From Candidatus Omnitrophota bacterium (GTDB taxonomy: Bacteria; Omnitrophota; Gorgyraeia; Zapsychrales; Zapsychraceae), in NCBI GenBank assembly GCA_028280285.1, contig JANQMA010000017.1, positions 64,993 through 128,992 of the forward strand: a DNA stretch of 64,000 nucleotides. The letters run 5' to 3'. Below are positions 3,690-51,297 of this stretch, piece after piece. The position numbers and the translations under genes were made by a program. The notes beneath the pieces are model-generated. The model was not told the origin of the DNA. It made no database searches and was given only the letters and a program-made list of their open reading frames with translations. Positions within the stretch are counted from its first letter, which is position 1; each line of letters opens with the position of its first letter.

Positions 3690-3992
3690 ATGATAAAAAA
3701 AAGTGTTATTAAAGATTCCCATTTTCGGGAGGTTACCGAAGTAAAGACGGATGCCAAAAACCGGATTACTTTAGGAAAAAATCTCAAATGGCCTAAAGTG
3801 ACAAGTTATGTTGTCTACACCAATGATCTTGGACAAATTGTCCTTGATCCGCAGGTGTCTATTCCTGCGTACGAGCAATGGTTGTTCAAAAATAAGAAAG
3901 CCGCCAAAATGGTGTTTGATGGGCTAGAAGATGCAAAGAAAGGAAACTTCGTCGACGCTCCCGAAGATTTTTCCAAGTATTTAGATGATTAA
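3690..3992 (+). CDS. Small protein, putative antitoxin partner of the downstream RelE/ParE-like gene
   Basis: 100 aa ORF; SD AGGAGGG 4 nt before ATG 3690; stop 4 nt before next ORF start (operon arrangement antitoxin-toxin); no family recognised. Confidence 0.3.
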   Translation: MIKKSVIKDSHFREVTEVKTDAKNRITLGKNLKWPKVTSYVVYTNDLGQIVLDPQVSIPAYEQWLFKNKKAAKMVFDGLEDAKKGNFVDAPEDFSKYLDD

Positions 3993-3995
3993 TTT

Positions 3996-4295
3996 ATGTT
4001 CGAGTTAATATTTACTAAAGCGGCCAAAAGGCACTTAAAAGAAATTGAAAAAGATAGTTCAAAAGCAGGATTGTGTCGGCAGGTCAAAAAATCACTCGGA
4101 TATCTTCAGACAAATCCCAGACACCCTTCTTTAAATACTCATCCGTATGAGGCAATCGACAATCCTATTAATCTTCGCGAAAAGGCCTTTGAGGCTTATG
4201 CGCAAAATAACACACCGTCGGCGTATCGTATTTTTTTCTGTTATGGGCCTGATAAAAAGCAGATTACAATCATTGCCATAACCCCGCATCCATAA
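3996..4295 (+). CDS. Putative type II toxin, RelE/ParE superfamily
   Basis: 99 aa, basic; C-terminal pattern YRIFFCYGPDKKQITIIAITPH resembles the YRIIY..d...v.Il.I.hR signature of RelE/ParE toxins. Confidence 0.45.
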   Translation: MFELIFTKAAKRHLKEIEKDSSKAGLCRQVKKSLGYLQTNPRHPSLNTHPYEAIDNPINLREKAFEAYAQNNTPSAYRIFFCYGPDKKQITIIAITPHP

Positions 4296-4361
4296 AAATT
4301 TGCATTTTCCCACCTATATGGCATACTTGCTAGATAATTCCTATTAATATTAGTAAATTTT

Positions 4362-16300: not shown

Positions 16301-19300
16301 TGAAGATTCTAGGAGTTTGGGTAAGGAGGTTGCGGATCAAACCGATGCGGCGGGATTGGGTGAAAGTGTTCAGAATTCAGTGTTCGGTGGTCAGCCGGAA
16401 GAAACTGATGCGGCGAATTTCAATGAGTATTTATTTTTATCACCTGAATTAACGTTGGACTATTTTGTTGCCTTACTATCAAACCTTGGAGATAAGACTG
16501 TTTTATCACTTACAGTATATCTTTTAGCTCCGTATATTGGTGCAGCACAATTGACAGATGAGTTTAAGTTAACAAATCCCTTAGCTAATACTTTATACGA
16601 CGTTGTAGTAGCTCAATTAAAAGAAATGTTCGGTAAGGACGAATTATACCCTATGGATATGAGAGGCTATTTGGATCAATTGCCATTGTTAAGCAACGAT
16701 ATTGGCAAGCATGTTTTGGAATCTCTAGGTAGTGTTAGAGCGATGGTCCATGAGTCTGAGCTTAAACATCAACCACCAATATCAATCGGTGTTGGCCAGA
16801 GCAAAAAGCTTATTTTGGCGGAGCGTTATTATACTGATCAGACTGATATGACGACTATGCATTTGTTGGATGTAACACGACTTTCCTCGAATCAATTTAA
16901 ATTGAAGGCAGAGGGGATAGATAGGCAAATTGATTTGAAGCAAGAGAGTTTAATGGGTTTAGAAATGAATTATTTGGATGAGCAAGGGCAGCCTTTTACA
17001 ATGTCAGTTAAGATGCTGTTTTCGAATAATGGTTTTCAAATTTATTATACCAATGATAACTTGGATTTTAATACTATGATCTTTGCGCTTGATTATGAAT
17101 TGATTAATTTTGTTAATGAAGTTGGTGAGCCAAAGCCTTTTCAAGATAATGCGAGTTTGGATAAGGAGAATGAGTTCCAAACCGACGCGGCGGGGTTGGG
17201 GTCTAGTGATCAGTGGTCCCGCGGTCAGTCGGAGAAATTTGATGCAGCGCGTTTAGATAAACAGCAGCTTAAAAAAATATCAAATAAAGCTCTTGGGAAT
17301 ATGTTTTGGAATGATTTTTATCGGGCATTGCTACTTTTGTTTGATAAATCGATAACATTTTATTCGCAGACAGATAAAGGGATTAAACCTTATGTATGGC
17401 ATAAACTAGTTGAACATGATCCAAGTGTTAATTTATCACTATTTGCCAAGATAGCAGTTCCAGGTTTGGATAACGTACGAGTTATAGACTCGAAATATGA
17501 TTATGTTATGAGTATATTAGACAGTTTTAATCCTTCTGCTGAATCTTTTACAAAATCAATGGAGAGCATCAAAGAGATGCTAGAAGATGATAATCAGCAG
17601 TTGGGGCTGGCTGAAAGTAAGCCGATTGCGCATAGGCATTTAATTCGTAGAGCGCTTTATTATTTTACACGTGAACATGATGAAGCCCGAGAGAATGAAA
17701 AGAAGTTGGTAGAGGTATTTGATTATGGAGCCAAAATTATCAATGAAATCAAACGGCGTAATAATATTGCCCAAAAAACATTAAAATCTCATGGAGTAAT
17801 TGTTGATGCCTCTGGTGCGGCAAAGCTGAATAATGGTGATCGATGGGCAGCCCGCCCTGCTGCTTTGCAGAAAAAACCGGAAACTCGCGTGGTCAGTGAT
17901 CAAAAGAAAGGCGGTGACGCGCTGGATTTGAGTAGAGAGAAATCTTTACAAATGTATCCACGAAAAACCTTATCCAATTTTGATTCGATTATTCATGTGT
18001 TATTTGAAGGATACACCCAAAAATTTCAATCTGGGCAAAATCCAATATTATGGAAAACACATGCAAGAAATTTATTGGAAAACGTAAGTTATTATGTGAA
18101 TGAGCATTTTATTTATCCTGAAGTCGCGATGGATACGTTTGTTAATAAAAATAAAGAATTTATCGAAAAGCTAATTGATGAAGGGAATGAACGCTATCTA
18201 TATTCTGCATTTTTAATTTATAAAGGTTTAGCCACAATGGCGGCTAAAGATTTACGTAACATTGCAGATAGTGATAGGTTGTTTGCTCAGCCACGAAAGA
18301 ATCAGCCGGTTCGAAGCTTTAGAAATCAAGCGCATAAGTTGGCTCCTTTGCGCAGGGAATTAGAGCGATTACAAGGAAGATATGTGGAGTTGCGAGAATG
18401 GGCTGAGTTCAATTTATTTTTCAATGATAAATTTCAGAAAGAATCTCAAATTGTTTATGCTTTTGAACATCATACGCAGAATTTAATTAATGTCGTTGGT
18501 GAGGTTGGTTATGATGGAGCGCTGACCTATGGAGAGGTTGATCAGTATGCTATTCAATTGCAAGGCGATGCTTATATTTTAGAAGGTGTTGTGCGTGTAT
18601 TACATGATATTAAGCTTAAGGTAGAAAGAGACTCTGCGAGTTTGGGTGAGGAGGTTGAGTTCCAAGCCGACGCGGCGGGGCTGGATTTAAAAAATTTAGA
18701 AGAAATTTCTGTTGATGAGATGAAAAAACTATTTAACGCTCTATTTTCAGAAGTTTTTTATGCTTTGTTTGAGGGTACTCTCTGGTCTCATGAATACGAA
18801 AATTATAATGAGATTGTTGAGTATGATTGGGAGAGACACAATGATTTGCATAATGTAAAGAATATTAAAGTTAATATCAATAGTGCTATGACTCTATTTG
18901 CTTTGAGGCCCAACTCGAATAAAGAAATAGACATGGCTCTCAGATCAATTGATAGATTTAAAAATGAACTACGTTTGATTGATTACACGAACCGAGAAAG
19001 TGAGTTAGATAGTTTGTTGGATCAAATGGAGGGATACAAAGATTTTGGTTTAAGTGAAGATGAACCAATTGAGTATGCATTGCTTAAACCACGATTTTTT
19101 TATCAAGCATTGCGTGCAGATCCTAATGCAGATGAGAATAGAATTAAAATGTTTACCAAAGTGAACAATTTAAAGTCTGTTATTAATGAATTTAAACGTA
19201 GACTAGAAATTGAAAAGAAAAATTTAGTTGTTACAGGGTCTGAATCTACCGATGCAGCGGGGTTGAAAAGTATTGATAAGCAAGAGTTGCGTAATATGAC

Positions 19301-20330: not shown

Positions 20331-20636
20331 ATGATTATTTTACAAGAGATTTTAGCTGATAGCAAAAAGCATTATCAAGAAGTCCGAAAGAAAATTCTCA
20401 AAAATCTTTCTTCGCTTCCCCAGGGGAGTGTCAAAAAACGTAAGATTTCTAAGCGTATCTATTATTATCTCCAACAGAGGGTCGGTTCTAAAATTATTCA
20501 TAAATATTTAGGTAAAGAAGAGCCGGAGGAGTTAATTAAAGAGTTAAAATTACGTAAGTCTTTGAAAGCTGAGCTTAAAAAAGTCGATGAGGCTTTAAAG
20601 GTTATACAAAAAGTCCAAGGCAAAAAGTATGGATAA
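20331..20636 (+). CDS. Small basic protein (cassette 1 gene A), possible antitoxin/regulator partner
   Basis: SD AAGGAG 9 nt upstream of ATG 20331 (ORF-track GTG 20322 less likely); 8-nt overlap with the following gene; lysine-rich C-terminus. Confidence 0.4.
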   Translation: MIILQEILADSKKHYQEVRKKILKNLSSLPQGSVKKRKISKRIYYYLQQRVGSKIIHKYLGKEEPEELIKELKLRKSLKAELKKVDEALKVIQKVQGKKYG

Positions 20637-21309
20637 TGTGATTGCCAAAATTCTGAAAGTTTTTGAAAATAATAATCTATTTGAAGAAGGCGTAGAGCTG
20701 ATTGGAAGCTGGTGTTTTTACTTGTATCAAAAACATTTAAAGGCTCCGAGTTTTCCGCTGCGAACACAGGACATTGATTTTCTAATTCCCAATCCATTTA
20801 AGGGCAAAGAGCATAAAGAGTTTATTCAGCAGTTGGAGGACTTGGGTTTTCAGAGTGAATTTAATCGGAGTGGATCGCTTTACCTTTGGAATGTGGATTT
20901 AAAAATAGAATTTATCACGCCGGCAAAAGGCAGAGGCACGGCCGATGCGGTAAAATTTAAAAAGCTGGGACTAGCGGCCGTACCTTTGAGATTTGTTAAT
21001 CTGTTGCTCAATGATCCTATTTATGTTACGGAGAAGGGAGTAAAAACAGCTCTTCCAAATCCTGCTAATTATTGCCTTCATAAGTTGGTGATTGCTAGCC
21101 GTAGAAAGACGAAGGACAAGCAAATGAAAGATTTACAGCAAGCCATATCTACCTACAGTATTGCTGATAAGAGGTATTTAAAAAAACAATTTAACAACTT
21201 TCCCGAAAAATGGAAAGCTACCGCTGTCAGTATGCTTAAAAAGAATCGAGATCAGCTGCCTCTTTTTGATGCGGAGATAGAGCAAATTTTAATTACACTA
21301 CAAAATTAA
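20629..21309 (+). CDS. Putative minimal-nucleotidyltransferase-fold protein (AbiEii/GSU2403-like) (cassette 1 gene B)
   Basis: GSWCFYLYQ...RTQDIDFLI matches the G[SG]x9-13 DhD nucleotidyltransferase signature; translationally coupled to upstream small gene. Confidence 0.35.
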   Translation: MDNVIAKILKVFENNNLFEEGVELIGSWCFYLYQKHLKAPSFPLRTQDIDFLIPNPFKGKEHKEFIQQLEDLGFQSEFNRSGSLYLWNVDLKIEFITPAKGRGTADAVKFKKLGLAAVPLRFVNLLLNDPIYVTEKGVKTALPNPANYCLHKLVIASRRKTKDKQMKDLQQAISTYSIADKRYLKKQFNNFPEKWKATAVSMLKKNRDQLPLFDAEIEQILITLQN

Positions 21310-21358
21310 TAATTTTATATAATGTAGTGTAAAATTTTTTTATAAGTTTGTTGACAGC

Positions 21359-21472
21359 GCGCCGGTGACCACCGTCCCGCTTATTTTTAGCCAAATTCTT
21401 GAAGATCAACAGGATACAGATCACGCCTCGGTGACGGATTATCCGCAGTTGTCGTATGCGATTAAAGAGTGA
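21359..21472 (+). pseudogene. Displaced duplicate of the 3' end of the giant gene (last ~37 codons, no start codon)
   Basis: ~90% nt identity to 20068..20180; encodes APVTTVPLIFSQILEDQQDTDHASVTDYPQLSYAIKE* versus native PVTTVPLIFSQILGEQGDTDHASVTDYPQLSYAIKE*; 8 synonymous vs 3 nonsynonymous differences. Confidence 0.7.
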
Positions 21473-21579
21473 TTGGTGATTTAGAAAGTATATGATATTA
21501 TAAAATTCTAGTGGCTATTCCTCCCCAAAGTATGCTGTAACTTCAAACTATTCGATTTCCCTTACAATATTAATTTTTG

Positions 21580-21608
21580 ACAAGTATACGTCAATGGCGT
21601 ATACTTAC
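21580..21608 (+). promoter_or_regulatory. Sigma-70-type promoter for the HigBA-like pair with overlapping GTATAC palindromes
   Basis: TTGACA - 17 nt - TATACT; spacer contains GTATACGTCAATGGCGTATAC; followed by ACTTACTAAGTAAG palindrome. Confidence 0.4.
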
Positions 21609-21619
21609 TAAGTAAGGGG

Positions 21620-21943
21620 TTGTGCATGGAGATCATTGAAACGCCAATCTTTACAAAAATGATTGGGGATGTTCTTTCAGATGAAGAATATAGAGAATTA
21701 CAATGGGCATTGTTGCTTAATCCGAAGGTAGGTGTTGTTATCCCTGGAGGTGCGGGATTAAGAAAACTACGTTGGCATTTTTCTGGAAGTGGAAAAAGAG
21801 GGGGATTGCGTGTTATTTATTATTTCTATTCAGAAGACGAAGCAATTTATTTGTTGTTTTCGTATAAAAAATCACAACAAAATGCTTTAACGCGGGCACA
21901 AATAAAAATTCTAAGAGAGTATGTTAAGGGAGGTGTGCTGTGA
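21620..21943 (+). CDS. HigB-like toxin (RelE/ParE superfamily, phage-related COG4679-type)
   Basis: WHFSGSGKRGGLRVIYYFYSEDEAIYLLFSYKKSQQ matches the GxxGGxRVIYY..IYLL..Y.K signature; 4-nt ATGA overlap with downstream HTH gene. Confidence 0.6.
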   Translation: MCMEIIETPIFTKMIGDVLSDEEYRELQWALLLNPKVGVVIPGGAGLRKLRWHFSGSGKRGGLRVIYYFYSEDEAIYLLFSYKKSQQNALTRAQIKILREYVKGGVL

Positions 21944-22230
21944 AAGACAAAGATTTTAACAATTTGTTGACGAGTATTGACCAGGCACGAAAGATACATA
22001 AGGGAAAATTAAAACCAAGCCGTGTTTTCATATTTGATCCAGTGATGGTTAAAAACATAAGGAAAAAATTCAAAGTATCTCAATCTGAATTTGCTTATAT
22101 GATTGGTGTGAGTGTGGCGACTTTGCAAAACTGGGAGCAGGGCCGCCGAAAACCTGATGGGCCGGCATTGGCATTGTTGAAGGTTGCAGAAATGAATCCT
22201 GAAATTGTGATGAAAGCTTTGTATGCGTAA
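21940..22230 (+). CDS. HigA-like antitoxin, XRE-family helix-turn-helix protein
   Basis: SQSEFAYMIGVSVATLQNWEQGRRKP is a canonical XRE HTH; toxin-first gene order typical of HigBA. Confidence 0.65.
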   Translation: MKDKDFNNLLTSIDQARKIHKGKLKPSRVFIFDPVMVKNIRKKFKVSQSEFAYMIGVSVATLQNWEQGRRKPDGPALALLKVAEMNPEIVMKALYA

Positions 22231-22270
22231 GGGGATTGAGGGGCTCAATCCTTGAGGAGAAAAAGGAGGT

Positions 22271-22327
22271 ATGAAAAAAGCGGGTTTGCCTGAATACCCC
22301 CAATTATCATACGCAGTAAAAGATTAG
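22271..22327 (+). other. 18-codon mini-ORF (MKKAGLPEYPQLSYAVKD) = third, more decayed copy of the giant gene's C-terminal tail, preceded by a strong SD
   Basis: AAAAGGAGGT 1 nt upstream of ATG; last 11 residues EYPQLSYAVKD vs native DYPQLSYAIKE. Confidence 0.4.
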
Positions 22328-22395
22328 CCGCACCTCTTGTTGAATACAAAAGAATATGTTATACTCTATTAGAACATAAAAGAGGAGATAATATT

Positions 22396-22638
22396 ATGGC
22401 TAAAACTGTGACCTTAAGGCTTTCGGATGAGGAGTACCAAGCGATCCTTGCCTCCGCTCAAACAGAGCACCGGCCTATTTCTAACTTTATTACACATGCT
22501 GTGTTGGCCAAAATTAATGAATCCTTATTTGTGGATCCTGTTGAGATGAATGAAATTAAGTCTGATAAAGAGTTAATGAAGCGGCTTAAAAGTGGATCTA
22601 GTCAGGCCAAAAAGATGAAGGGAAAGTTTGTTGAGTAA
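22396..22638 (+). CDS. Ribbon-helix-helix (CopG/ParD-like) antitoxin
   Basis: MAKTVTLRLSDEEYQAILASA N-terminal beta-strand/helix pattern of RHH antitoxins; overlaps toxin gene by 11 nt. Confidence 0.5.
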   Translation: MAKTVTLRLSDEEYQAILASAQTEHRPISNFITHAVLAKINESLFVDPVEMNEIKSDKELMKRLKSGSSQAKKMKGKFVE

Positions 22639-22909
22639 TTTTCGCATATTTGAGACAGATCAATTTGCAGAAGATTTAGAACAAGATTTTTCCGGACAGC
22701 GTGAACGCATCAAAAAGAAGCTCCAAAGTTTTGTCTATCCACAGCTTCGTGATCAGCCTTATTTCGGTAAAAACATTAAAAAGTTACGTAATTTCTCTCT
22801 GGAAACCTGGCGATATCGCATAGGCGGGTTTCGGTTTTTTTATGAAATTGATGAGGAGCAAAAAATTGTTGTTATGATTGCGGCGAGCAATCGGGAAGGT
22901 GCATATTAA
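22628..22909 (+). CDS. RelE/ParE family toxin
   Basis: WRYRIGGFRFFYEIDEEQKIVVMIAASNR matches RelE/ParE C-terminal signature; TTG start overlapping antitoxin. Confidence 0.6.
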   Translation: MLSNFRIFETDQFAEDLEQDFSGQRERIKKKLQSFVYPQLRDQPYFGKNIKKLRNFSLETWRYRIGGFRFFYEIDEEQKIVVMIAASNREGAY

Positions 22910-24580: not shown

Positions 24581-24958
24581 ATGCAAATACGTAATTTTCA
24601 AGATTTAGCTATTTGGCAACGGAGTCATCAATTGACTCTAAAAGTTTACAAACTTACCAAGCATCTTCCTGAAGATGAGCGGTATGGAATTACAAATCAG
24701 GTGAGAAGATCATCTGTATCAATCTGTGCGAATATATCTGAAGGTTGCAGCAAGGGAACAAAAGAATTTATCAGATATTTAAATATAGCACGGGGCTCTT
24801 TAGAAGAAACAAAACATTATTTCATATTAATGAAAGATCTTGGTTATTGTTCTGTCGAGCAGTATCAGGTTTTGTTTAGTGAATTAGACCAAATTGGAAA
24901 AATGATTTACGGTCTTAAAATGCGTTTGGTGGAAAAATCCAAAACACTTAAATACTGA
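24581..24958 (+). CDS. Four-helix-bundle protein (TIGR02436 / 23S rRNA intervening-sequence protein family)
   Basis: AIWQRSHQLTLKVYKLTKHLPEDERYGITNQVRRSSVSICANISEG..ARGSLEETKHY matches the family signature; RBS enclosed in ATCCCCC..GGGGGAT hairpin 24553-24577. Confidence 0.7.
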   Translation: MQIRNFQDLAIWQRSHQLTLKVYKLTKHLPEDERYGITNQVRRSSVSICANISEGCSKGTKEFIRYLNIARGSLEETKHYFILMKDLGYCSVEQYQVLFSELDQIGKMIYGLKMRLVEKSKTLKY

Positions 24959-41065: not shown

Positions 41066-42424
41066 ATGAGAAAATTATTTTTCGCGGCTTTAGCAGTAGT
41101 GTTTATGGCAGGTACTGCATCAGCAGCCGTTCAAAACGTTAAGGTAAGCGGGTCGGTTGATTCGACTTATGTTAACAGAAAAAACTTTGATTTAGGTGAG
41201 GATGGTGGTTCTGATCACCGTAAACAAAGTTCTTTTATTACGCAAACGTCATTGAGAGTTGATGCAGATCTAACAGACAATGTGTCTGCAACAATTGCTC
41301 TTTTAAATGAAAGAGCTTGGGAATCATCTCCAGGTTCTACAGCAACAGACATTGAGCTTCAATTGGCTTTTGCTGTATTGCGTGAATTCCTTTATTCACC
41401 ATTAACATTGACAGTGGGTCGTCAGGAATTCATTTTTGGTAATGGATTCATTATGGACTCAGCTGCTGGTAGTGGTGATTCAGCGATTTCTAGTGTTGCT
41501 AGTGACCTTTCTAAGAGATTTGCTCTTGATGCGGTTCGTGCAACATTAGATTACAACCCACTAACACTTGATCTTGTATACTTCCGTGATACAGACGGTG
41601 CTAGTGCTGGTTTCTTTACCGGTAGTTCAACAAGCATCGATGTCTATGGTATTAATGCCAACTATGCGTTGGGTGATACTATGAACTCAATCATCGAAGC
41701 ATACTACTGGAAAAAATGGGACAGAACTGACTCAAACAGCGCGACTGACCAAGAAGATAAGCTTCATGTATATGGTCTTCGCGGAAGCACTAACCCGATT
41801 GAAGGGTTAAGCGTTTCAGCTGAGTGGGCCCATCAAAGTGGTGAATCAGATGATGGTTCTGACCAAGCAAACAAAAATGCTAACGCAGTACAGTTAATTG
41901 CAAACTATCAAGTACCTGTGTTAACTGAATACAATCCTGTGCTTACGTATAGCTTCACTAAGTACTCAGGTGATGTAACAACAGCATCTGATGACCACAG
42001 AGATTCCGGTTGGGATTCATTCTACAATGACCAACTAGAAGGTATTGTGTATACATTATTCTCTAAAACAAACCTACTTGTTCATGATGTTTATCTTGAA
42101 ACAACGCCAATGGAAGATGTAACAGCTGGTTTTAGATGGCAAGGTTTGTGGCTAGATAAGTCATGGGAAGATGGCTCATCAGCGTCTTTTACAATCGGAT
42201 CTAACCATGGTGCTGGTACAGATACATTCACATCAGCTGCTGGTGAAATCGATGAAAAAGAAAGTTACTTAGGTAGTGAGTTTGATTTCGATCTAACGTA
42301 TGACTATACGGAAGACGTTCAAATCGGAACTACTTTAGGTTACTTCTTCCCGGGTGATTTCTTTACAGAAGGAAATGACCTAACAGCAAAACAATGGTTG
42401 GTTAACTTAAACGTTGCATTCTAA
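41066..42424 (+). CDS. Outer-membrane beta-barrel protein (porin-like)
   Basis: Signal peptide ending ASAAVQ, alternating amphipathic beta-strands, aromatic C-terminal residue (..LNVAF). Confidence 0.6.
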   Translation: MRKLFFAALAVVFMAGTASAAVQNVKVSGSVDSTYVNRKNFDLGEDGGSDHRKQSSFITQTSLRVDADLTDNVSATIALLNERAWESSPGSTATDIELQLAFAVLREFLYSPLTLTVGRQEFIFGNGFIMDSAAGSGDSAISSVASDLSKRFALDAVRATLDYNPLTLDLVYFRDTDGASAGFFTGSSTSIDVYGINANYALGDTMNSIIEAYYWKKWDRTDSNSATDQEDKLHVYGLRGSTNPIEGLSVSAEWAHQSGESDDGSDQANKNANAVQLIANYQVPVLTEYNPVLTYSFTKYSGDVTTASDDHRDSGWDSFYNDQLEGIVYTLFSKTNLLVHDVYLETTPMEDVTAGFRWQGLWLDKSWEDGSSASFTIGSNHGAGTDTFTSAAGEIDEKESYLGSEFDFDLTYDYTEDVQIGTTLGYFFPGDFFTEGNDLTAKQWLVNLNVAF

Positions 42425-42834: not shown

Positions 42835-43413
42835 ATGACCAGAGATGAAATTTATGACCATCTTGCGCAAGTGTATTTAGGTAAACGCAAGAAAGGTGAA
42901 GATAAAAAGACAGAAAACAGATTTAACGCATGGCTTTTGATTAATATATTAATCACTGTCATCATTTTCGCCAGTGCATTTTATGGATTAACGGCGTTTT
43001 TTACGCATAATAATTCGCTCTTAAAAGATAATGTGATTTATTCGCTTCACCGGGGTGTGGTAACCATGGATTACCGGTTTGACGAAGGATATCCACCGGT
43101 TAAGTCATTTGCGCTGTCGATCCCCGGGATTGATACCTCCAGTTACAGTAATCTGGAGTTTTCGATTCGGGCTCGGGAAGAAGGAACGCCAGGTATTGTT
43201 AAGGTTGTGATCAAGAACATCCGCAACGAAGAATCGGCCTTTTATGTGCAGGGAGTGGATTACAAATGGCAAGAAATTGTGATTCCATTTACCGAATTTC
43301 AGAAAATCACCGATTGGTCACAAGTAACAGATGTGTCTTTTGTCCTTGAAGCATGGAATGTCGATAAACGCAAAGGACTTATATTAATCGACAATATTGG
43401 GTTTTCAAGCTGA
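42835..43413 (+). CDS. Membrane-anchored protein with C-terminal beta-sandwich (carbohydrate-binding-module-like) domain, unknown function
   Basis: Single TM helix after basic N-terminus, then beta-rich region; no specific family recognised. Confidence 0.35.
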   Translation: MTRDEIYDHLAQVYLGKRKKGEDKKTENRFNAWLLINILITVIIFASAFYGLTAFFTHNNSLLKDNVIYSLHRGVVTMDYRFDEGYPPVKSFALSIPGIDTSSYSNLEFSIRAREEGTPGIVKVVIKNIRNEESAFYVQGVDYKWQEIVIPFTEFQKITDWSQVTDVSFVLEAWNVDKRKGLILIDNIGFSS

Positions 43414-43488: not shown

Positions 43489-44775
43489 ATGAGAATTATA
43501 TCGATAGCCAATCAAAAAGGCGGTTGTGGTAAAACGACCACGGCTATTAATCTTGCTTCTGCTTTGGGGCAGAACGGCAAGAGGGTTTTATTAATCGACC
43601 TTGATCCTCAGGCACATGCATCACTCGGATTGGACATCGAAAGTCAAGATAGTATTTATAATGTCATTTCGAATTTAACACCGCGTAAATTAAAGCTCGA
43701 AAATATCATCCGTCGGGTGGAAGACACGTTTGACATTGTTCCGTCCAATATCCTCGTCGGTACACTTGAGCAGGAGCTAGCCGATGAAATTGGACGTGAA
43801 CTCAAACTTAAGGAAGTCATCGAGCCGGTTTGCGAGCGTTATGATTATGTTTTGATCGATTGCGCGCCAAGTCTTGGTATTTTAACGGTGAATGCGTTAC
43901 GTTTAAGTGATGAATTGATTGTTCCGGTTGAAACATCACGTTTTTCGATGCAAGGGGTTGTTCATTTAACCGATATCGTGAATTTGGTTAAGGAACGTCT
44001 AGGCCACGAACTGAGAACACGCATTTTGGTTACGATGTTTGACTCGCGCCTGCGTCATTCTTTTACGATGCTTGATACCTTTAAAGACGCATTTGGGGAA
44101 AAAATTTATGACACGATTGTCCATGTCAATGTTAAGCTCAAAGAAGCAGCCGTTAATGGGAAATCTGTTTCATCATTCGATAAATATTGCCGGGGCTCTA
44201 AAGATTATTATAGCCTTGCCAAAGAGATTATTTCTCTTGAAGCGAAAAAACAAGATGCGGCGCTTGATCAACTCTCTGCTCAAGAAGTAGAAAAAGTCTT
44301 TCGTTCACCAACGTTTGCTTCAACCTCTCGTGATACAAAAGTAGAGTCAGTCTCTGTTAGAGAAGAAAAGGCGCCTGAGGAAAAAGAAACCTCGACGGTC
44401 AATCCTATCGAAAAAGAAGAAGAGACGATTGAGGCAGAAGAAATTTCTCTTGCCCCTGTCTCTGATAAACTGCAAGAAGTTGTTAGCCGGGAAGTCAAAG
44501 ATTTATTTTCTGTTTCTTTTGCCATTAATGCCCCCGGAGCCAAATCAGTTTATGTGACGGGCAGTTTTAATGACTGGTCGTTGGATGATTCTTGCCGCCT
44601 CAAAGATCGTGATGGGGAAGGCAATTGGGAAACAAAGATTGATCTTCGCCCGGGCACGTATAAATATCAATTCATTATCGACGGTGTATGGCAGGAAGAT
44701 CCTAATAATGCGCAAAAAGAACGCAATTCTTTTGGCGATATTAACTCATTGATTGAAGTCGGAGCTTCTTCTTAA
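43489..44775 (+). CDS. ParA/MinD-family ATPase fused to a C-terminal AMPK-beta/CBM48-like glycogen-binding domain
   Basis: Deviant Walker A KGGCGKTT, ParA core (LLIDLDPQA); acidic/Ser-rich linker; C-terminal FSVSFAINAPGAKSVYVTGSFNDWS..GEGNWETKIDLRPGTYKYQFIIDGVW matches CBM48/AMPK1_CBM fold signature. Confidence 0.7.
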   Translation: MRIISIANQKGGCGKTTTAINLASALGQNGKRVLLIDLDPQAHASLGLDIESQDSIYNVISNLTPRKLKLENIIRRVEDTFDIVPSNILVGTLEQELADEIGRELKLKEVIEPVCERYDYVLIDCAPSLGILTVNALRLSDELIVPVETSRFSMQGVVHLTDIVNLVKERLGHELRTRILVTMFDSRLRHSFTMLDTFKDAFGEKIYDTIVHVNVKLKEAAVNGKSVSSFDKYCRGSKDYYSLAKEIISLEAKKQDAALDQLSAQEVEKVFRSPTFASTSRDTKVESVSVREEKAPEEKETSTVNPIEKEEETIEAEEISLAPVSDKLQEVVSREVKDLFSVSFAINAPGAKSVYVTGSFNDWSLDDSCRLKDRDGEGNWETKIDLRPGTYKYQFIIDGVWQEDPNNAQKERNSFGDINSLIEVGASS

Positions 44776-44799: not shown

Positions 44800-45126
44800 A
44801 TGGTAACTAAAAAAAGTAAAAGCAGTACTCCTGATCCGCAAAGTAAAATCTTCGCACTCATCGGTTACCTTTCGATTTTATGCATTATTCCCCTTGTGAC
44901 TAAACATGATGATGAGTTTGTCCTCTATCATAGCAAGCAAGGACTTGTTTTGTTCTTACTGCAAGTAGCTGCGTTTGTGCTGCATATTATGGTTGGCTAT
45001 TGGCTTTTAAGACTGGTCTTGTTTGTCTCGGGTGTGAGCGCCTTTATTGGAATGATTTTTGTCTTGAAAGGTGAGAGGGTCACTATACCGCTTATCTCCC
45101 GGTTGGCCCAAAAATTGGAAATATAG
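44800..45126 (+). CDS. Small membrane protein (3 TM)
   Basis: Hydrophobic segments; 2 nt from next gene. Confidence 0.4.
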   Translation: MVTKKSKSSTPDPQSKIFALIGYLSILCIIPLVTKHDDEFVLYHSKQGLVLFLLQVAAFVLHIMVGYWLLRLVLFVSGVSAFIGMIFVLKGERVTIPLISRLAQKLEI

Positions 45127-45128
45127 CC

Positions 45129-45608
45129 ATGCCTATCGTTGATGTCCTCCTGGATTCACTCATCAAAAGCCTTCAGAAAATAAAAAAGTCTCATCAACAA
45201 AACAGAAAAAAAAGACAACAAGCTAAAGCCAAGGCGGCAAAAAAGAAGACCGCTCGGAAAAAAACGGCAAAAAAGAAGGCTGCCAAAAAGGTAACTAAAA
45301 AGACAGCGAAAAAGGTAGTTAAAAAATCAAAGCCAAAAGTAAAACCGAAAAAGACGAATGAAAAGCTAATTGGCGAAATTACCCATTATTTTTCCAAAAT
45401 CAAGGTAATTGTCATAAAGATAAGTGCTGCAACACTTAAGGTAGGGGATAAAATCCATATCAAAGGGGCAACGAGCGATTTTACGCAAACTATCAAATCA
45501 ATGCAGATTGAAAGTAAGGATGTCAAAAGCGCGCGTAAGGGGCAGGTTATCGGCCTCAAGGTCACTAAGCAGGCACGGGTGGGAGATAACGTTTTCCTAA
45601 AAAACTAG
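45129..45608 (+). CDS. Lysine/alanine-rich (histone H1-like) protein with C-terminal small beta-barrel domain
   Basis: AKAKAAKKKTARKKTAKKKAAKK repeats; C-terminal VGDKIHIKG..GQVIGLKV..GDNVFL resembles EF-Tu domain-2-like barrels. Confidence 0.4.
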   Translation: MPIVDVLLDSLIKSLQKIKKSHQQNRKKRQQAKAKAAKKKTARKKTAKKKAAKKVTKKTAKKVVKKSKPKVKPKKTNEKLIGEITHYFSKIKVIVIKISAATLKVGDKIHIKGATSDFTQTIKSMQIESKDVKSARKGQVIGLKVTKQARVGDNVFLKN

Positions 45609-45692
45609 TTCTTTTTTAGTCCTTGCATTGGCACAACCGCTACTATATGTTATATTTATCATATAACTTCTATTTCTACTAATAGGCCCGAT

Positions 45693-48600
45693 ATGTCACT
45701 CAAAACTCTCCAAAATCTTATTTTTCAGCAGTTAAGTGATGCCTCTAGGAAGCTTTCCAATAAATCAGGCCAGAATATTGTCGAATATGTTTTGATTCTC
45801 GCAACCGTAGTAACAACGGCTGTTGTGACGTTGGGGCCGGAAGGTATTGTGACTAAAGAAGTTGAGCGGGTTCCAGGCCTAACGATTGACAAGGCCCAGT
45901 GTGTGGCGCGTCAAACATGTTTTAGAGAGGATAACTGTGTCCTGGAGGCTGTCTGCGGCAACAGATGTTGTGAACCTAGTGAAAGTAAGACCAGCTGCCC
46001 TGAAGATTGTGAGGTAGAGAATGAAGAAAGTCATTACTGCGGCGATGGTATTAAGGATCCTGGAGAGACGTGCGGTAATTGCCCGCAAGATATTCCCGAG
46101 TGTTCTTGCGGAGATAATCAATGTGATAAGAATCTTGGAGAAGAGGAAACATGTCCACAGGATTGTACAGTCCCTGAATCATGCGGCGATAATATTTGTG
46201 ATGAAGGGGAGGATTGCAATAATTGTGAGGGAGATTGCGGTTCGTGTGCGTTCTCATGTGATATTGGTTCGCGTTTTTGTAACGGCGGTTGTATTGTGGA
46301 TGGTTCAGCCGGTGAAGGGGAAGAATGTTGCGAATCCGGTAATTGCGCGTCGGGGATTTGTGTAGATAACGTATGCCAAGAAATCTTCAGCTGTACCGGG
46401 GATATTCCGGGCAATACTACCCTATGCCCAGGTGCCGGCAACCCAACAGAAGATACTGCGATTACAATGGTTGAGAGCTGTGGATTGGCCCAGTGTGAGT
46501 ATAGATGTAATCCTGGTGATAGTGATATCTGTTCAGTGTCGGGCATTCCAGAATGCATTGCTGATGGTTCGGTGCCGGATACCGAAGAGTGTTGTGAGTC
46601 ACGTAACTGTTCAGCTGCCTCCGCCTGTGTTGAAGGGCTTTGCCAACCACTACCCGGAGAATGTGTAGGGACACCTTTGGATGGGTGGGATTTATGCTCA
46701 GGGGACGATAGTCCAGAGACTGTGACTTCTATTACTTTGGTGGCTGCCTGCGGTACGCCTGATTGTGAATATACTTGTGATACCGAAAGCTATAGATTTT
46801 GTGATGCAGAGTGTGTGCCTAATCGGTCGCTGCCGCAAGATGCGGTTTGTTGTGAAAATATTAATTGTGTGTCAAATAGTTGTATAGACGGAATCTGTCA
46901 GCCTCTAGCGGGTTCTTGTGGTAATGGCATTATTGAAGAAGGTGAGGTTTGCGACGGAATAGAGGGACTGGAGACTCCTGGCGTTTCTTATTTTGATGGA
47001 GGTAATTGGTATGTTGAAGTATTAGGAGATTGCCAAAATTCTTGTACACAAAGATTTAGATCTACAACGTGTACCGGTGCACCGGATAACGCATTGTGGT
47101 GGGATAATTCAGCTTTCCTTGAGTTTTGTGATAATGGAGTAGGGTCTGGATGTAACAATTGGACAGTGACGGAAAATTCTGCCGGAGAACCTTTGATTAA
47201 CGAAAGTACGCCGGTTTTTTCTGAAACAGATATTGGGAATCGTACATGTGATTATTTTTGTGCGGATGGCACACATTATTGTTTGAATGGATGTATTCCC
47301 AAGAACGATTTAGGAGATGGTTCTGCGTGTTGTGATGATATTAATTGTCAATCGGGTAATTGTCAAAAACAAGAAGGTGAAGATGCAGGGGTTTGTGCAG
47401 TGTCGCTTCCGGCCTGTACCGGTGCTGAGCCGGACAATGCAGAGATTTGTGCAGGCGACGACAGCCCTGCCGTAGATACACTCATTAGTTTAGTTGAGTC
47501 TTGTGGAGTTGATGACTGTGAATATATATGTAATGATGAGTCTGATTTTTGTTCGGGAGAATGTGTTGTCAAAGGTTCACGGTTAGAAAACGCACAGTGC
47601 TGTTCCGACGAGAATTGTGCATCCAATGATTGTGATATTGCAAGCGGCACTTGCCGCCCTGATACACGCTGTACAATTTGTGGGACTGTTTATAATCAAG
47701 GTGAAGAGATTTATAAAATAGAAACATGTATAGCCGGGCCTCCGGATTCTCCGGTTGAGTTGACCTTTTCTTGTGGAGATCCAATACCTGATATTGCCGG
47801 ACTCGGCGCATCACGCAGTGAACTTTGTGCGGGCATAACACCCGCAAGTCCTGAACCGGATACGATTAATTATCTTTGGGAAGGCAATGTTATTACCACG
47901 ACTCCTAGTACAGATATTAACAGTGTGTGTCCTAATGAAATTGCGACTTGTGGCAATGACACTTTGGACTCGGGTGAGGAGTGCGATGATGGTAATACGC
48001 GCGGAGGTGATGGGTGCAGTACAAGTTGCTCGTGGGAGACGAAAAATTTTATATGTTTGCCAACCCCGGAAGGAAACCAATATGTTTTTAATCAAGCCGA
48101 AAGTTATACGCAAACATGTGTTGCATCTAATGGGAATGACTGTACCCAGTGGGATTATCCGGGCGATGTGGTAACGGAGTATAATCCTGTCCCTTCAGTA
48201 ACAGCTTGCCGTTTCACTTGTACAGAAGGACTTGTTTGGACAGGAAACGGCTGTGGGGAACAATGCGAAGATATTAGTGATGGAGCAGCTTGCGGATCTG
48301 CACCACATTGCAGTTGGGATGCCGGTGCCGGAATATGTGTTGATGCGGGGTTACCGATTTGCGCGAACGGAGTAGTTGAAACAGGAGAGGAATGTGATGA
48401 TGGGAATAAGGACAACAAAGATGGATGTAGTAAAAATTGTGATTGGGAAACAAAGAATTTTGCATGCAGCGCGAAGCCTGGTGGTAATGAAACACAAATG
48501 AATACGGTTTTTGCCTATATGCAGACATGTGTTGCTTCTAATGGAGTCACATGTACTGACTGGATTCCGCCGGATGACCCGACGACCGAATATGATGAGA

Positions 48601-49970
48601 CACCATCTTCTACTTCATGTCAGTTTAATTGTAGTGCATCGTATGTCTGGGATAGTACGGCATGTGTCTTAGGCGAAGTTTTATGCGGGAATGGTAGTGT
48701 TGACAGTGGGGAAGAGTGCGATGACGGCAATACACAAGATGGAGATGGTTGTAGTAAAACGTGCGGATGGGAGACGCGGATACATATATGCCCTGATGCT
48801 TTAGCTGATGAAACGACTATGGTTTTTAATACGGTTCTGGCCTATGTACAGACATGTACTGCATCCAATGGAGTCGCGTGCACAAGCTGGAATCCACCGG
48901 ATGACCCGACGACCGAATATAACACTACGCCGGCGACAGATTCCTGCCGTTTCCGCTGTGCCGATAACTACATATGGAATAACGCGGATTGTATTCCTGA
49001 GGCAGTTTGTGGGGACAATCTCATCGAAGGTGCTGAAGAGTGTGATGACGGTAATCAAAATAGTGGAGATGGGTGTTCGGTGAATTGTAATTGGGAGACA
49101 AAAAACTTCCTCTGTAATCCAGCGCCGGATGAGGCAGGTACGCAGGCTAATACGGTGTATGCGTATAACCAAATTTGTATGGCATCCGACGGGACGGCAT
49201 GTACCAGCTGGAATCCACCGGATGATCCGACAACCGAATACAATGAAACGCCTTCAACGACATCGTGTCAATATATATGCGCAGATGGTTACAATCGGGA
49301 AGGTTCACAGTGTGTTCCGGTCGATTGCGGTAATGGACGAATAGATCCTGCTGGGTGTACGGATTCGTGTTTATTTAGATCGGGGCATGATTCAAATTGT
49401 AATGCTATCAGGGATGAGGCGGTATGTAACGGAGCGGCCAACTGTCAATGGAACGCGATTGATGTTAATGCGGGGAGTTATTGTGCAGGATTTAGCAATC
49501 CTCTTGACTGTTTAAATGAGCCGTATGAAAAATGTACATGGTCTTTGCTTTTGGAGGCTTCAGAATGTATCCCGCGCGTCGAAGCCCAAGAAACATTTGA
49601 TGCAAGTAGTTGTGGTTACCAGGTGCAATGTGACCGGCTGCAAGGAGAAGTGAGTTGTTCTTTGGCCAGTGCGCATTGTATTTGGGATGATTGTATCGAA
49701 GAGTGTGATGGAGGCGTTAATTGTACCAGTTGCAAGTGTAATGCGGGGACATATCCAACTTCTCCACCGTCGAGCTCATGCGCCAATTCCTGTTTGACAG
49801 TGCGCAATGAATTTGGAGATTGTTGTCCTTCCGGACGGCCGCTTGTGACAGATTGTTCAGGACACAGTGTATGCATACCATGTGTCCAGCCGGGTGAAAC
49901 ATGGACTGGGAATTGCAGTAATCATGGGCCTTTAAGCGGCATTGAAGGCTGTGAAGTGAAACTTAATTAA
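45693..49970 (+). CDS. 1425-aa cysteine-rich surface protein with Flp/Tad-type prepilin-like N-terminus and tandem Myxococcus-type cysteine-rich repeats (TIGR02232/DUF4215-like)
   Basis: N-terminus ...NKSG/QNIVEYVLILATVVTTAVVTL fits G/xxxxEY class III signal; four tandem units CGNGxxExGEECDDGNxxxGDGCSxxCxWETKNFxC; Cys content ~12%. Confidence 0.75.
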   Translation: MSLKTLQNLIFQQLSDASRKLSNKSGQNIVEYVLILATVVTTAVVTLGPEGIVTKEVERVPGLTIDKAQCVARQTCFREDNCVLEAVCGNRCCEPSESKTSCPEDCEVENEESHYCGDGIKDPGETCGNCPQDIPECSCGDNQCDKNLGEEETCPQDCTVPESCGDNICDEGEDCNNCEGDCGSCAFSCDIGSRFCNGGCIVDGSAGEGEECCESGNCASGICVDNVCQEIFSCTGDIPGNTTLCPGAGNPTEDTAITMVESCGLAQCEYRCNPGDSDICSVSGIPECIADGSVPDTEECCESRNCSAASACVEGLCQPLPGECVGTPLDGWDLCSGDDSPETVTSITLVAACGTPDCEYTCDTESYRFCDAECVPNRSLPQDAVCCENINCVSNSCIDGICQPLAGSCGNGIIEEGEVCDGIEGLETPGVSYFDGGNWYVEVLGDCQNSCTQRFRSTTCTGAPDNALWWDNSAFLEFCDNGVGSGCNNWTVTENSAGEPLINESTPVFSETDIGNRTCDYFCADGTHYCLNGCIPKNDLGDGSACCDDINCQSGNCQKQEGEDAGVCAVSLPACTGAEPDNAEICAGDDSPAVDTLISLVESCGVDDCEYICNDESDFCSGECVVKGSRLENAQCCSDENCASNDCDIASGTCRPDTRCTICGTVYNQGEEIYKIETCIAGPPDSPVELTFSCGDPIPDIAGLGASRSELCAGITPASPEPDTINYLWEGNVITTTPSTDINSVCPNEIATCGNDTLDSGEECDDGNTRGGDGCSTSCSWETKNFICLPTPEGNQYVFNQAESYTQTCVASNGNDCTQWDYPGDVVTEYNPVPSVTACRFTCTEGLVWTGNGCGEQCEDISDGAACGSAPHCSWDAGAGICVDAGLPICANGVVETGEECDDGNKDNKDGCSKNCDWETKNFACSAKPGGNETQMNTVFAYMQTCVASNGVTCTDWIPPDDPTTEYDETPSSTSCQFNCSASYVWDSTACVLGEVLCGNGSVDSGEECDDGNTQDGDGCSKTCGWETRIHICPDALADETTMVFNTVLAYVQTCTASNGVACTSWNPPDDPTTEYNTTPATDSCRFRCADNYIWNNADCIPEAVCGDNLIEGAEECDDGNQNSGDGCSVNCNWETKNFLCNPAPDEAGTQANTVYAYNQICMASDGTACTSWNPPDDPTTEYNETPSTTSCQYICADGYNREGSQCVPVDCGNGRIDPAGCTDSCLFRSGHDSNCNAIRDEAVCNGAANCQWNAIDVNAGSYCAGFSNPLDCLNEPYEKCTWSLLLEASECIPRVEAQETFDASSCGYQVQCDRLQGEVSCSLASAHCIWDDCIEECDGGVNCTSCKCNAGTYPTSPPSSSCANSCLTVRNEFGDCCPSGRPLVTDCSGHSVCIPCVQPGETWTGNCSNHGPLSGIEGCEVKLN

Positions 49971-49979
49971 ATACATATT

Positions 49980-50405
49980 ATGCCTAAACGCAGCGAAAAT
50001 GACTGTCATCTTATCCGCCGTTATCTTATCTGGTGTTATAAAACCACAAAAGAAGATCTTGACCGCATTGATCGATATTATACGCAACTCGATGTGGATG
50101 CATTTTTGCTGAAAACTCTTCGTCGAGGCAAAGATTATAAACGCAAAAAAGATGAGTATTACAGAGGGTTGGTTGATGATTTCGAAAAATACATGCAGAA
50201 GAAAAAAGATAATGTTGATCAGAAAAAGTTTAAAGATGAAAAGTGTAAAGAGTTATCATCTGAGTATTTATATGTGAAAAACAGATTTGATGCGATTGAG
50301 CGAGCTATTGTTGATTTTCTCGGGGAGGAAGAGCTTGATCATATTTGCACACTTTATGAAGAAGAAATGACTTCCCGCATCCTTGCCGCGCGTGAACATT
50401 CTTAA
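49980..50405 (+). CDS. Hypothetical protein (141 aa, charged)
   Basis: ORF only. Confidence 0.35.
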   Translation: MPKRSENDCHLIRRYLIWCYKTTKEDLDRIDRYYTQLDVDAFLLKTLRRGKDYKRKKDEYYRGLVDDFEKYMQKKKDNVDQKKFKDEKCKELSSEYLYVKNRFDAIERAIVDFLGEEELDHICTLYEEEMTSRILAAREHS

Positions 50406-50429
50406 AAAGAGAGTCATTAGTCATTGGTC

Positions 50430-50702
50430 TCATCTTTGTTGCATATCTCTAATTTTTTGCCGCGTATCACGCATCATCTGTTCCTGCTTTCTGCGCTGAT
50501 CGCGTAAAAGGGCGTCTTGATCACGTTTTAATTGGCGGGCTTTTTGAGATTGCATGTCCATCTCTATGCGTGAATTGGGAGTTTCAATCTCACTACTTTG
50601 GGCGACTGATTTTTTAAAGAGGGTGATGGCGCCAGCATATAATACTAGACCAAAAATCCCGGCGATAAGAAAAAGAATTAGAACATCCCACGTATCATCC
50701 AT
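50430..50702 (-). CDS. Small membrane protein with basic coiled-coil C-terminus
   Basis: N-terminal TM helix, RDQRRKQEQMMRDTRQKIRDMQQR tail. Confidence 0.4.
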   Translation of the reverse strand: MDDTWDVLILFLIAGIFGLVLYAGAITLFKKSVAQSSEIETPNSRIEMDMQSQKARQLKRDQDALLRDQRRKQEQMMRDTRQKIRDMQQR

Positions 50703-50712
50703 GAGTCAATTA

Positions 50713-50773
50713 TAGGGACGGACCCTATTTAATTCAACAGTTTACATGATAAATTAAATAGGGTCCGTCCCTA
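50713..50773. repeat. Perfect 22-bp inverted repeat with 17-nt loop
   Basis: TAGGGACGGACCCTATTTAATT ... AATTAAATAGGGTCCGTCCCTA. Confidence 0.8.
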
Positions 50774-50830
50774 GTTTAAATAATGATTCTCGGTGTTGAG
50801 TTTCTTCTTGGGAATTGGTAGAATAATAAA

Positions 50831-50918
50831 AAGGGTTTAGGGGTAAGGGGTTAAAGGGTAAAAAATAATAAGCTCTAAATAAATTTAACCCTATAACCCT
50901 CTAGCCCTTTATCCCTAC
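50831..50918. repeat. Dyad repeat of GGGTTTAGGGG/GGGTAAAGGG words and complements
   Basis: AAGGGTTTAGGGGTAAGGGGTTAAAGGGTA ... AACCCTATAACCCTCTAGCCCTTTATCCCTAC. Confidence 0.6.
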
Positions 50919-50946
50919 TGTATTCTTATTAAATCAGGAGTATAAA

Positions 50947-51297
50947 ATGTCCGCACAATTTGATTACAAAAAAGAGTGGGAAAAGACAAAAAAGCAATTA
51001 ATTAAATTCGGTCAAGAAGCCACTGTTTTGGCCAAAAAGGGCGAGGAAGAGCTGGTTAAGTTTTCTCAAAAAAGTAAACTGCAGGTCGATGTTACGGCAA
51101 CTCATTTAAAGATAGAGAAGTTATACTATTTAATTGGAAAAGAGTATGTCAAAACAAAAGGAAAGGCGCAGTCGGCTGCGTTAACAAAACATTTAAATGA
51201 GTTGGAAAAACTCCTTAAAGAGGAAACTTCTCTTAAGTCGAAATTAAAAGTAAAATCTAAGGCGAAGAAGAAAAGTGCTAAAAAGAAATCTGCTTAA
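50947..51297 (+). CDS. Hypothetical lysine-rich protein
   Basis: ORF; KLKVKSKAKKKSAKKKSA tail. Confidence 0.35.
   Translation: MSAQFDYKKEWEKTKKQLIKFGQEATVLAKKGEEELVKFSQKSKLQVDVTATHLKIEKLYYLIGKEYVKTKGKAQSAALTKHLNELEKLLKEETSLKSKLKVKSKAKKKSAKKKSA

Follow-up and report, generated by a model that had tools for sequence, protein, structure and literature searches.

Flp/Tad-type pilins are regarded as the smallest pilins and have little beyond a helix. The TadE, TadF and TadG pseudopilins are larger proteins with a prepilin-like hydrophobic N-terminus that is processed by TadV, and in archaea, large non-pilin proteins, such as those of the Sulfolobus bindosome, also carry class III signals. Modular pilins have, to our knowledge, been catalogued only in the T4a-type, N-methylated class. 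These modular type IV pilins, such as PilB and PilC of Streptococcus sanguinis and CofB of enterotoxigenic Escherichia coli, join a small pilin module to a C-terminal functional module, are expected at the tip of the filament with a role in adhesion, possess the IPR012902 G/(F,M)TLxE N-methylation motif and reached 860 aa at most in a 2021 survey (PMC8179133). Here, we analyzed a 64-kb stretch of DNA from a Candidatus Omnitrophota bacterium (64,000 nucleotides of contig JANQMA010000017.1, the whole of which is referred to as the window), in which the open reading frame (ORF) at 45693..49970 (+ strand, ATG start, stop codon included) encodes a protein of 1425 aa. An identical protein (P0001) is present on an NCBI contig and in the Logan assembly of SRR20820735. 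We favor, as reasonably probable, the reading that this protein is a modular Flp-like pilin with a Cys-rich ectodomain. The architecture noted in the first-pass annotation, a pilin module of Flp size onto which an acidic, disulfide-rich ectodomain has been grafted, holds, and it is the largest such case that we have seen.

The protein would consist of three parts, namely a basic leader of 26 residues ending in Gly, a helix-turn-helix module from Q27 to about aa 75, and ~1350 residues of acidic, disulfide-rich repeats. Its features, with the basis for each given in parentheses, are the following:

45693..45770, + strand: leader, aa 1-26, ending in KSG, with predicted cleavage after G26 (sequence, family pattern and AlphaFold2)
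45771..45833, + strand: hydrophobic helix alpha1 of the pilin module, aa 27-47 (QNIVEYVLILATVVTTAVVTL), with Q at +1, E at +5 and Y at +6 (hydropathy, AlphaFold2 and family)
45834..45914, + strand: GPEG turn (aa 48-51) and amphipathic helix 2 (aa 52-74) of the pilin module (AlphaFold2 and alignment to the family hidden Markov model, HMM)
45900..46262, + strand: three short CGxxxC..E..C..DC modules, aa 70-190 (internal and family comparison)
46236..47675, + strand: about five Cys-rich repeats of ~88 aa, aa 182-661 (internal BLAST of 60-aa fragments, E down to 1e-17)
47949..49328, + strand: four tandem units, aa 753-1212, the first of 137 aa and the other three of ~108 aa (a DUF4215/TIGR02232 repeat and a conserved WETKNF...TEY...C part in each)
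49329..49967, + strand: Cys-rich C-terminal tail, aa 1213-1425 (Cys positions)

The ATG at 45693 is the first ATG, GTG or TTG past the in-frame stop at 45606-45608 and the sole start codon ahead of the helix in the open frame. With the predicted cleavage site marked by a slash, the whole N-terminus is MSLKTLQNLIFQQLSDASRKLSNKSG/QNIVEYVLILATVVTTAVVTLGPEG, of which residues 22-52 are SNKSG/QNIVEYVLILATVVTTAVVTLGPEG. The first-pass annotation of this DNA had noted G26, a Glu at +5, a Tyr at +6 and a subsequent hydrophobic helix of ~20 residues, and all of these can be read directly from the protein (G26, Q27 at +1, E31 at +5, Y32 at +6, with aa 27-47 hydrophobic). KSG/QNIVEY is followed by VLILATVVTTAVVTL, which together give the Flp-type motif of a Gly-ending leader, G/xxxxEY and ~20 hydrophobic residues, and the protein likewise has what marks a class III signal, namely a G/A/S residue at the cleavage site, Q at +1, E at +5 and then a hydrophobic stretch. 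By hydropathy, aa 27-47 are the only hydrophobic segment near the N-terminus; a second 19-residue window, at aa 877, is barely above the hydrophobicity cut-off. The combination of G-x4-E-[YF...] and a hydrophobic run occurs a single time in the six-frame translation of the whole window, with no second occurrence of G-x4-E-[YF] and a hydrophobic run in ~1.45 Mb of sequence (83 fetched loci). Past the helix lie 1378 aa, with 233 acidic versus 49 basic residues, and the protein holds 160 Cys (11.2%), somewhat fewer than the ~170 that had been estimated earlier. An ordinary cleaved Sec signal peptide or a lipoprotein was also considered and rejected. Signal peptidase I is expected to act at an AxA site and is disfavored by a Pro after the hydrophobic stretch. 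The protein has LGP at this place and no AxA site, making an ordinary cleaved Sec signal unlikely, and there is no lipobox Cys.

To define relatives of the N-terminus, a profile of ~94 N-terminal positions was searched against 1.84 billion representative proteins, yielding 305 representatives at E<=1e-3. Among the best 150 of these 305 matches, 85 (at least 85 protein clusters) have the whole module of leader, helix and turn in common and make up the family considered here, while most of the other sequences of the best 150 match only the CGNGCCEPGE..C..DC module, often in many copies. All members that could be placed taxonomically belong to Omnitrophota. The family signature consists of a basic leader, G/A at -1, Q at +1, E at +5, Y at +6, ~21 hydrophobic residues and then GPxG, with the following residues at the individual positions of the 85 members:

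-3 and -2: mostly K/R
-1: G in 67, A in 17, S in 1
+1: Q in 85 (demanded by the selection pattern)
+5: E in 85 (demanded by the selection pattern)
+6: Y in 82, F in 2, V in 1
+8: L in 74
+23: P in 64
+25: G in 75

When only E at +5 and the hydrophobic run were fixed, leaving -1 to +4 free, the scan gave 88 sequences, of which 85 also have G/A/S at -1, Q at +1 and Y/F/V at +6; of the three left over, two are unrelated proteins and one is a variant (A/YSAVEY). Family lengths are continuous from 56 to 1425 aa, our protein being the longest, with 22 members of <=81 aa, many of them free of Cys, and members are 18–39% identical to our protein. Each of the 85 members was also scanned singly against Pfam, counting matches at E<=0.1. 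Class_IIIsignal (PF04021) was matched by 55 members (best E 1.5e-7), Flp_Fap (PF04964) by 26 (best E 1.3e-5), Flp1_like by seven and TadE, weakly, by one. One member of 66 aa (P0214) bears the NCBI name 'class III signal peptide-containing protein [Candidatus Omnitrophota]'. The residues at -1, +1, +5 and +6 recur across 85 of the 88 sequences although overall identity is low, and the relatives match these Pfam models, both of which strongly point to a signal of class III. By sequence comparison, the N-terminal module is homologous to the short, Flp-like class III-signal proteins of Omnitrophota. To avoid circularity, a profile was also built from 82 members, leaving out our protein and its two closest relatives. 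This profile aligned with aa 19-82 of our protein at 62.9 bits (E 2e-17 among 20,250 six-frame segments) and, over ~1.5 Mb of loci, found family genes only.

Like the Flp/Fap pilins of Tad (type IVc) systems, such as Caulobacter PilA (8u1k), these proteins have a basic, Gly-ending leader, Glu at +5, Tyr at +6, Leu at +8, ~20 hydrophobic residues and Gly at +25. The short orthologues described below, of 57–66 aa, are also of Flp size, and, besides the 26 matches to PF04964, the best match of the family profile among PDB sequences is PilA itself (8u1k_A, E 0.073, over IEY...G25). Unlike Flp/Fap pilins, however, the family has a constant Gln at +1, the gene lies outside a tad locus, with the sole adjacent ATPase in a relative being of GspE/PilB type, and our protein, instead of being a small precursor of ~50–90 aa, has 1425 aa, a ~1350-aa ectodomain and no match to PF04964. 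Archaeal class III signal proteins (PF04021; substrates of EppA/PibD-type peptidases) share with the family Q at +1 and E at +5 after G/A, and 55 members match this model, but the present lineage is bacterial. The arrangement of an N-terminal pilin module with an unrelated functional module grafted C-terminally is that of the modular type IV pilins (Raynaud et al. 2021), and is also that of our protein. Unlike these, it lacks the IPR012902 motif (Gln at +1 in 85 of 85 members) and the globular alpha-beta fold, having instead an Flp-like helix-turn-helix with G/QxxxEY, and it consists, beyond this module, wholly of Cys-rich repeats, with 1425 aa compared to the survey maximum of 860 aa.

The genomic context of the gene provides a second line of evidence. 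The neighboring features are the following:

41066-42424, + strand: alginate-export-like outer-membrane barrel (AlgE-like; Pfam)
42835-43413, + strand: 192-aa membrane protein (TM192; upstream block)
43489-44775, + strand: ParA/MinD ATPase fused to CBM48, AMPK glycogen-binding (ParA-CBM48; Pfam)
44800-45126, + strand: MamF-like membrane protein (Pfam)
45129-45608, + strand: Lys-rich EF-Tu-domain-2-like protein (EFTuD2-like; Pfam)
45628..45656, + strand: promoter-like site TTGGCA-17-TATATT with TG, in the 84-nt gap before the gene and 37 nt upstream of the ATG
49980..50405, + strand: p141, a conserved 141-aa protein that starts 9 nt past the stop codon (no Pfam or NCBIfam match)

Promoter-like sites are no more common in the region than expected by chance, so that only the position of the site at 45628..45656 is suggestive. 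The conserved block runs in the order tetratricopeptide repeat protein, AlgE-like, TM192, ParA-CBM48, MamF-like, EFTuD2-like, family gene, p141 and a 116-aa protein (p116), the last two occupying 49980-51297 of the window. Of 14 genomic contexts, 13 (the window and 12 loci of other genomes or metagenomes) place the family gene in this block. It is whole in the window and in most loci, while a few lack one or two members or are truncated where the contig ends. Orthologues of all or most of the five upstream genes precede the family gene in the same order in these 12 related loci, with the block order seen in L004, L085, L089, L091, L092 and L095-L100. A tblastn screen of 11 related loci placed an orthologue of p141 immediately downstream of the family gene in eight of them; in L089, it overlaps the family gene by 1 nt. 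At 2.4 kb downstream, the polynucleotide phosphorylase gene shares 69% identity with its counterpart in a Candidatus Omnitrophota metagenome-assembled genome (L004) and 55% with that of Candidatus Velamenicoccus archaeovorus. A 6-sequence alignment was used for the metagenome scan for loci, and it should be noted that true relatives surfaced only via synteny and the exhaustive profile search, not via the full-length homology search.

At the block position, the products have 57, 60, 62, 64, 66, 80, 151, 152, 90+1043, 1158, 1199 and 1425 aa; our gene is thus the positional orthologue of the 57–66-aa versions in relatives, which have no Cys at all. One long member (P0178, 859 aa) sits outside the block. 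The syntenic product of L004 has 1199 aa with 200 Cys and begins MKIKSFLNNRA/QQTIEY, and its alignment with our protein is limited to the first ~100 residues (32% identity, E 9e-12). In L085 (6842-10273), two family genes stand in tandem, encoding a protein of 1043 aa (172 Cys, RAG/QQTIEY, Gly at -1) and one of 90 aa (IA/QQTIEF, Ala at -1), the latter being the N-terminal module alone, in an arrangement resembling a pair of minor and major pilins. Only the first 60–190 residues are common among the long forms. The ectodomains of L004 and L085 are 54% identical, but those of the other lineages show no relationship to one another apart from a few short, weak matches, and different lineages have thus attached unrelated Cys-rich ectodomains to the same module. 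A shared head with unrelated ectodomains means that a small pilin-like module was extended independently with different Cys-rich repeats. As the head is the same as that of the 57–66-aa subunit at the same locus, a small pilin seems to have been built up into a huge disulfide-rich protein, which is probably adhesive.

Two observations on individual loci should be added. In L100 (3080-9687), four extra ORFs of 84, 402, 986 and 486 aa, without a Pfam match, lie between the MamF-like gene and the 1158-aa member, and by HMM they are not family members. On a metagenome contig of 1.27 kb (L086, 296-847), a protein of 183 aa (P0124) is identical to the L004 orthologue over its ~125 first residues, after which the two differ and P0124 stops short. 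This may reflect strain variation or a chimeric assembly of the repeats.

Several results weigh against a pilin and need to be considered when judging this reading, the first group of which concerns the N-terminus itself. When the first 80 aa of our protein were compared with Pfam, the best match was Flp1_like at E 0.11 and 12.4 bits, below the cut-off of 33.5. Flp_Fap (PF04964) was not matched at E<=10, neither by these 80 aa nor by the whole protein, Class_IIIsignal (PF04021) was not matched at E<=0.1, and NCBIfam gave nothing relevant for the N-terminus. The N-terminus of the L004 orthologue reaches 17.4 bits with PF04021 (E 0.0043), below the cut-off of 23.7. The earlier claim of an Flp/Fap class III head on a large Cys-rich ectodomain is therefore upheld through the homology of the family (55 and 26 of 85 members) and the Flp-size orthologues, but not through a PF04964 match of the protein itself; of the profile comparisons then proposed, that with PF04964 gave no match while those with DUF4215 and TIGR02232 exceeded their cut-offs. 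The N_methyl-type Pfam model was not matched either. The TadE and TadG models (PF07811, PF13400) gave no match, so that, although our protein is, like TadE, TadF and TadG, a larger protein with a prepilin-like hydrophobic N-terminus, it differs from these in its profile matches, in having no vWA domain and in belonging to a family of which one member in 85 is weakly TadE-like. A word-indexed homology search with the 69-aa N-terminus gave no candidate, but it also missed our protein itself, which is in the database, and this outcome therefore reflects the search tool and not the biology. In addition, 17 of the 85 members have Ala instead of Gly at -1, and bacterial prepilin peptidases cut less well after Ala than after Gly at this position.

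The N-terminus was also modelled with AlphaFold2, as had been proposed for the first 60 residues in the first-pass annotation, here using aa 1-120 and 55 family sequences. The model (mean predicted local distance difference test score, pLDDT, of 80) contains a leader helix at aa 3-20, a loop at aa 21-26 that holds the predicted cleavage site, a helix at aa 27-47 (block pLDDT 94–95), a break at GPEG, a helix at aa 52-74 and then coil. This predicted helix-turn-helix fits what is expected of an Flp-like pilin. Nonetheless, Foldseek found no significant match of the model in the PDB, a further point against a pilin, and the predicted fold should thus be taken as consistency rather than as proof.

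Another explanation is that the protein is a plain Sec-inserted type II membrane protein, or one with an uncleaved signal anchor, in which G/QxxxEY would be a lineage quirk of the transmembrane helix, with no prepilin processing. That no curated pilin model reaches its threshold on our protein, that no peptidase gene was found in the window and that AlphaFold2 predicted helices only, with no pilin match by Foldseek, would all agree with such an anchor. However, a signal anchor needs no G/A/S at -1, no Q at +1 and no aromatic residue at +6, yet 85 of 88 sequences carry them at 18–39% identity to our protein, and the matches of 55 members to Class_IIIsignal and of 26 to Flp_Fap equally speak against it. 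A charged Glu five residues into the transmembrane helix is a hallmark of type IV pilins, and E at +5 stands within the helix of our protein. We consider a signal anchor quite improbable.

The second group of points against a pilin concerns the machinery. As had been stated before, there are no tad or cpa genes in the window: the annotated genes are housekeeping or unknown, and neither a prepilin peptidase, assembly ATPase, platform protein or secretin was found among the annotated ORFs, nor tadV/cpaA, tadA/cpaF, tadB/C or rcpA. The conserved neighbors of the block are not known pilus genes, and in 11 of the 12 related block loci no machinery gene adjoins the family gene. The only locus with a machinery gene beside the family gene is L092, where a 442-aa truncated T2SSE ATPase (3920-5439, 399 bits) lies directly upstream of the 60-aa family member. 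This ATPase is of GspE/PilB type, scoring 466 bits with TIGR02533 and 432 bits with TIGR02538, as compared to 52 bits with the TadA-type model. The link to a Tad-like system that was considered earlier has found no backing, as nothing points to Tad in particular and the one adjoining machinery gene is not TadA/CpaF. The TadZ/CpaE proteins of Tad systems resemble the ParA-CBM48 protein of the block in being ParA/MinD-type ATPases. Moreover, the locus has no short family partner in the window or in L004, where the long form stands alone. Finally, the ectodomain of ~1400 residues is far above the largest modular pilin of the 2021 survey (860 aa; PMC8179133), and its passage through a secretin is hypothetical.

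The unlinked machinery and the lack of a short partner at the locus are the main arguments for a different explanation, according to which the class III signal serves for processing and anchoring only. A prepilin peptidase would then cleave the leader, but the helix would stay in the membrane, or in a short pseudopilus-like stalk, with no long pilus, comparable to the sugar-binding proteins of the archaeal bindosome. No pilus machinery is linked in 12 of 13 block loci, the locus holds no family member other than the long form in either the window or L004, the 1378-aa part past the helix is hard to fit in a filament body, and the archaeal PF04021 is matched by more members than PF04964 (55 vs. 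26). Against this, the Cys-free orthologues of 57–66 aa are little beyond a pilin helix-turn-helix and have no obvious role but that of a filament subunit, the tandem of long and short forms in L085 is the usual pattern of minor and major pilins, and an assembly ATPase adjoins the gene in L092. We regard processing and anchoring alone as unlikely, although it is the alternative to be taken most seriously. As to the machinery, Tad complexes and type IVa pilus genes are widespread in Omnitrophota (PMC10066038), and a conserved locus resembling type II secretion systems and type IV pili, with many small class III-signal genes, has been described in this phylum (bioRxiv 10.1101/2023.11.21.568195), so that suitable machines exist in the phylum.

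The curated libraries (Pfam and NCBIfam) see only DUF4215/TIGR02232 repeats in the protein: DUF4215 (PF13948) matches in four stretches (E 7.4e-13, 49 bits vs. a cut-off of 27) and TIGR02232, 'cysteine-rich acidic repeat', in five (E 5.7e-30, 102.8 bits vs. a cut-off of 20.8). The four tandem Myxococcus-type repeats reported earlier are thus confirmed, with clean units beginning at aa 753, 890, 998 and 1106 and degenerate copies at 164 and 409. The four tandem units are 50–55% identical among themselves, and AlphaFold on one DUF4215 unit (4-sequence alignment) gave an unusable model (pLDDT 40). Neither the ~88-aa repeats at aa 182-661 nor the C-terminal tail at aa 1213-1425 match any Pfam or NCBIfam family. 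The first short Cys module, aa 88-106 (CGNRCCEPSESKTSCPEDC, 45954-46010), is kept in most family members longer than ~90 aa. This CGNxCCEPxE..C..DC module (profile positions 67-93) also has matches in numerous unrelated proteins, where it is repeated in tandem as many as 18 times (e.g., P0134, P0144, P0147 and P0204), and it looks like a widespread Cys module.

With 4–5 repeats over the curated cut-offs, our protein is a true member of the DUF4215/TIGR02232 'Myxococcus cysteine-rich acidic repeat' proteins. The full-length homology search returned, among the matches listed (n=120), our protein itself and 119 DUF4215 proteins, which cover no more than ~30% of the query at ~25–50% identity. Inspection of their N-termini revealed ordinary signal peptides or lipoprotein-like sequences. 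The pilin-like head was found in none of these 119, and our protein is unlike the others listed in being alone in having it.

A predatory or parasitic life and large surface proteins have been attributed to Omnitrophota (PMC10066038; bioRxiv 10.1101/2023.11.21.568195), which would suit the delivery of a secreted toxin or enzyme through a pilus-like system, an option that had been raised for this protein in the first-pass annotation. Pfam and NCBIfam reveal no toxin, enzyme or catalytic domain in it, only structural Cys-rich repeats, and its homologues among the matches listed are all DUF4215 repeat proteins. The toxin reading was rejected for want of a catalytic domain, and we hold it to be very improbable indeed.

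If the protein is indeed a modular Flp-like pilin, a prepilin peptidase (TadV/CpaA- or PilD-like) would cleave it after G26, with the hydrophobic helix initially embedded in the inner membrane. From there, it could be taken up by a type IV filament machine whose genes lie elsewhere in the genome. The bulky ectodomain would allow only a rare or a tip position in a filament of short paralogues, and, so placed, it may act as an adhesin toward prey, host or surfaces.

A further possibility is that the conserved block is itself an unrecognized surface-display or minimal filament system, whose Flp-size subunit grew several times and independently, from 57 aa to as many as 1425 aa, by gaining disulfide-rich ectodomains particular to each lineage. 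We consider this rather unlikely, but, if true, the block would represent an attachment organelle that evolves fast and serves nanobacteria living as predators or parasites.

In the literature searched, we found no description of the conserved locus of this family or of Cys-rich Flp-like fusions, and the small class III-signal genes of Omnitrophota are mentioned only in passing. The orthologue series presents, in one phylum, the same Flp-size module with nothing attached, with one small Cys knot or with more than 1000 residues of unrelated Cys-rich repeats. It offers a clear natural example of module grafting on a pilin and carries this concept over to Flp-like pilins and to cargo of much greater size. 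The series also provides a concrete candidate adhesin for Omnitrophota, an uncultured phylum in which the mechanism of predatory or parasitic attachment is at issue, and defines a family and a conserved locus that are testable across complete Omnitrophota genomes.

Two other features of the window are worth recording. At 4362-20180 (+), an ORF of 5272 aa has a signal-peptide-like N-terminus, no Cys and no Pfam match in any part; giant proteins are a known trait of Omnitrophota. Between this giant ORF and glyS, at 20629-22909 and 24581-24958, lie genes for a nucleotidyltransferase (NTP_transf_8), a RelE-like toxin with a helix-turn-helix/MqsA-like antitoxin, a ParE-like toxin and a four-helix protein of the 23S rRNA-intervening-sequence/bAvd-like type.

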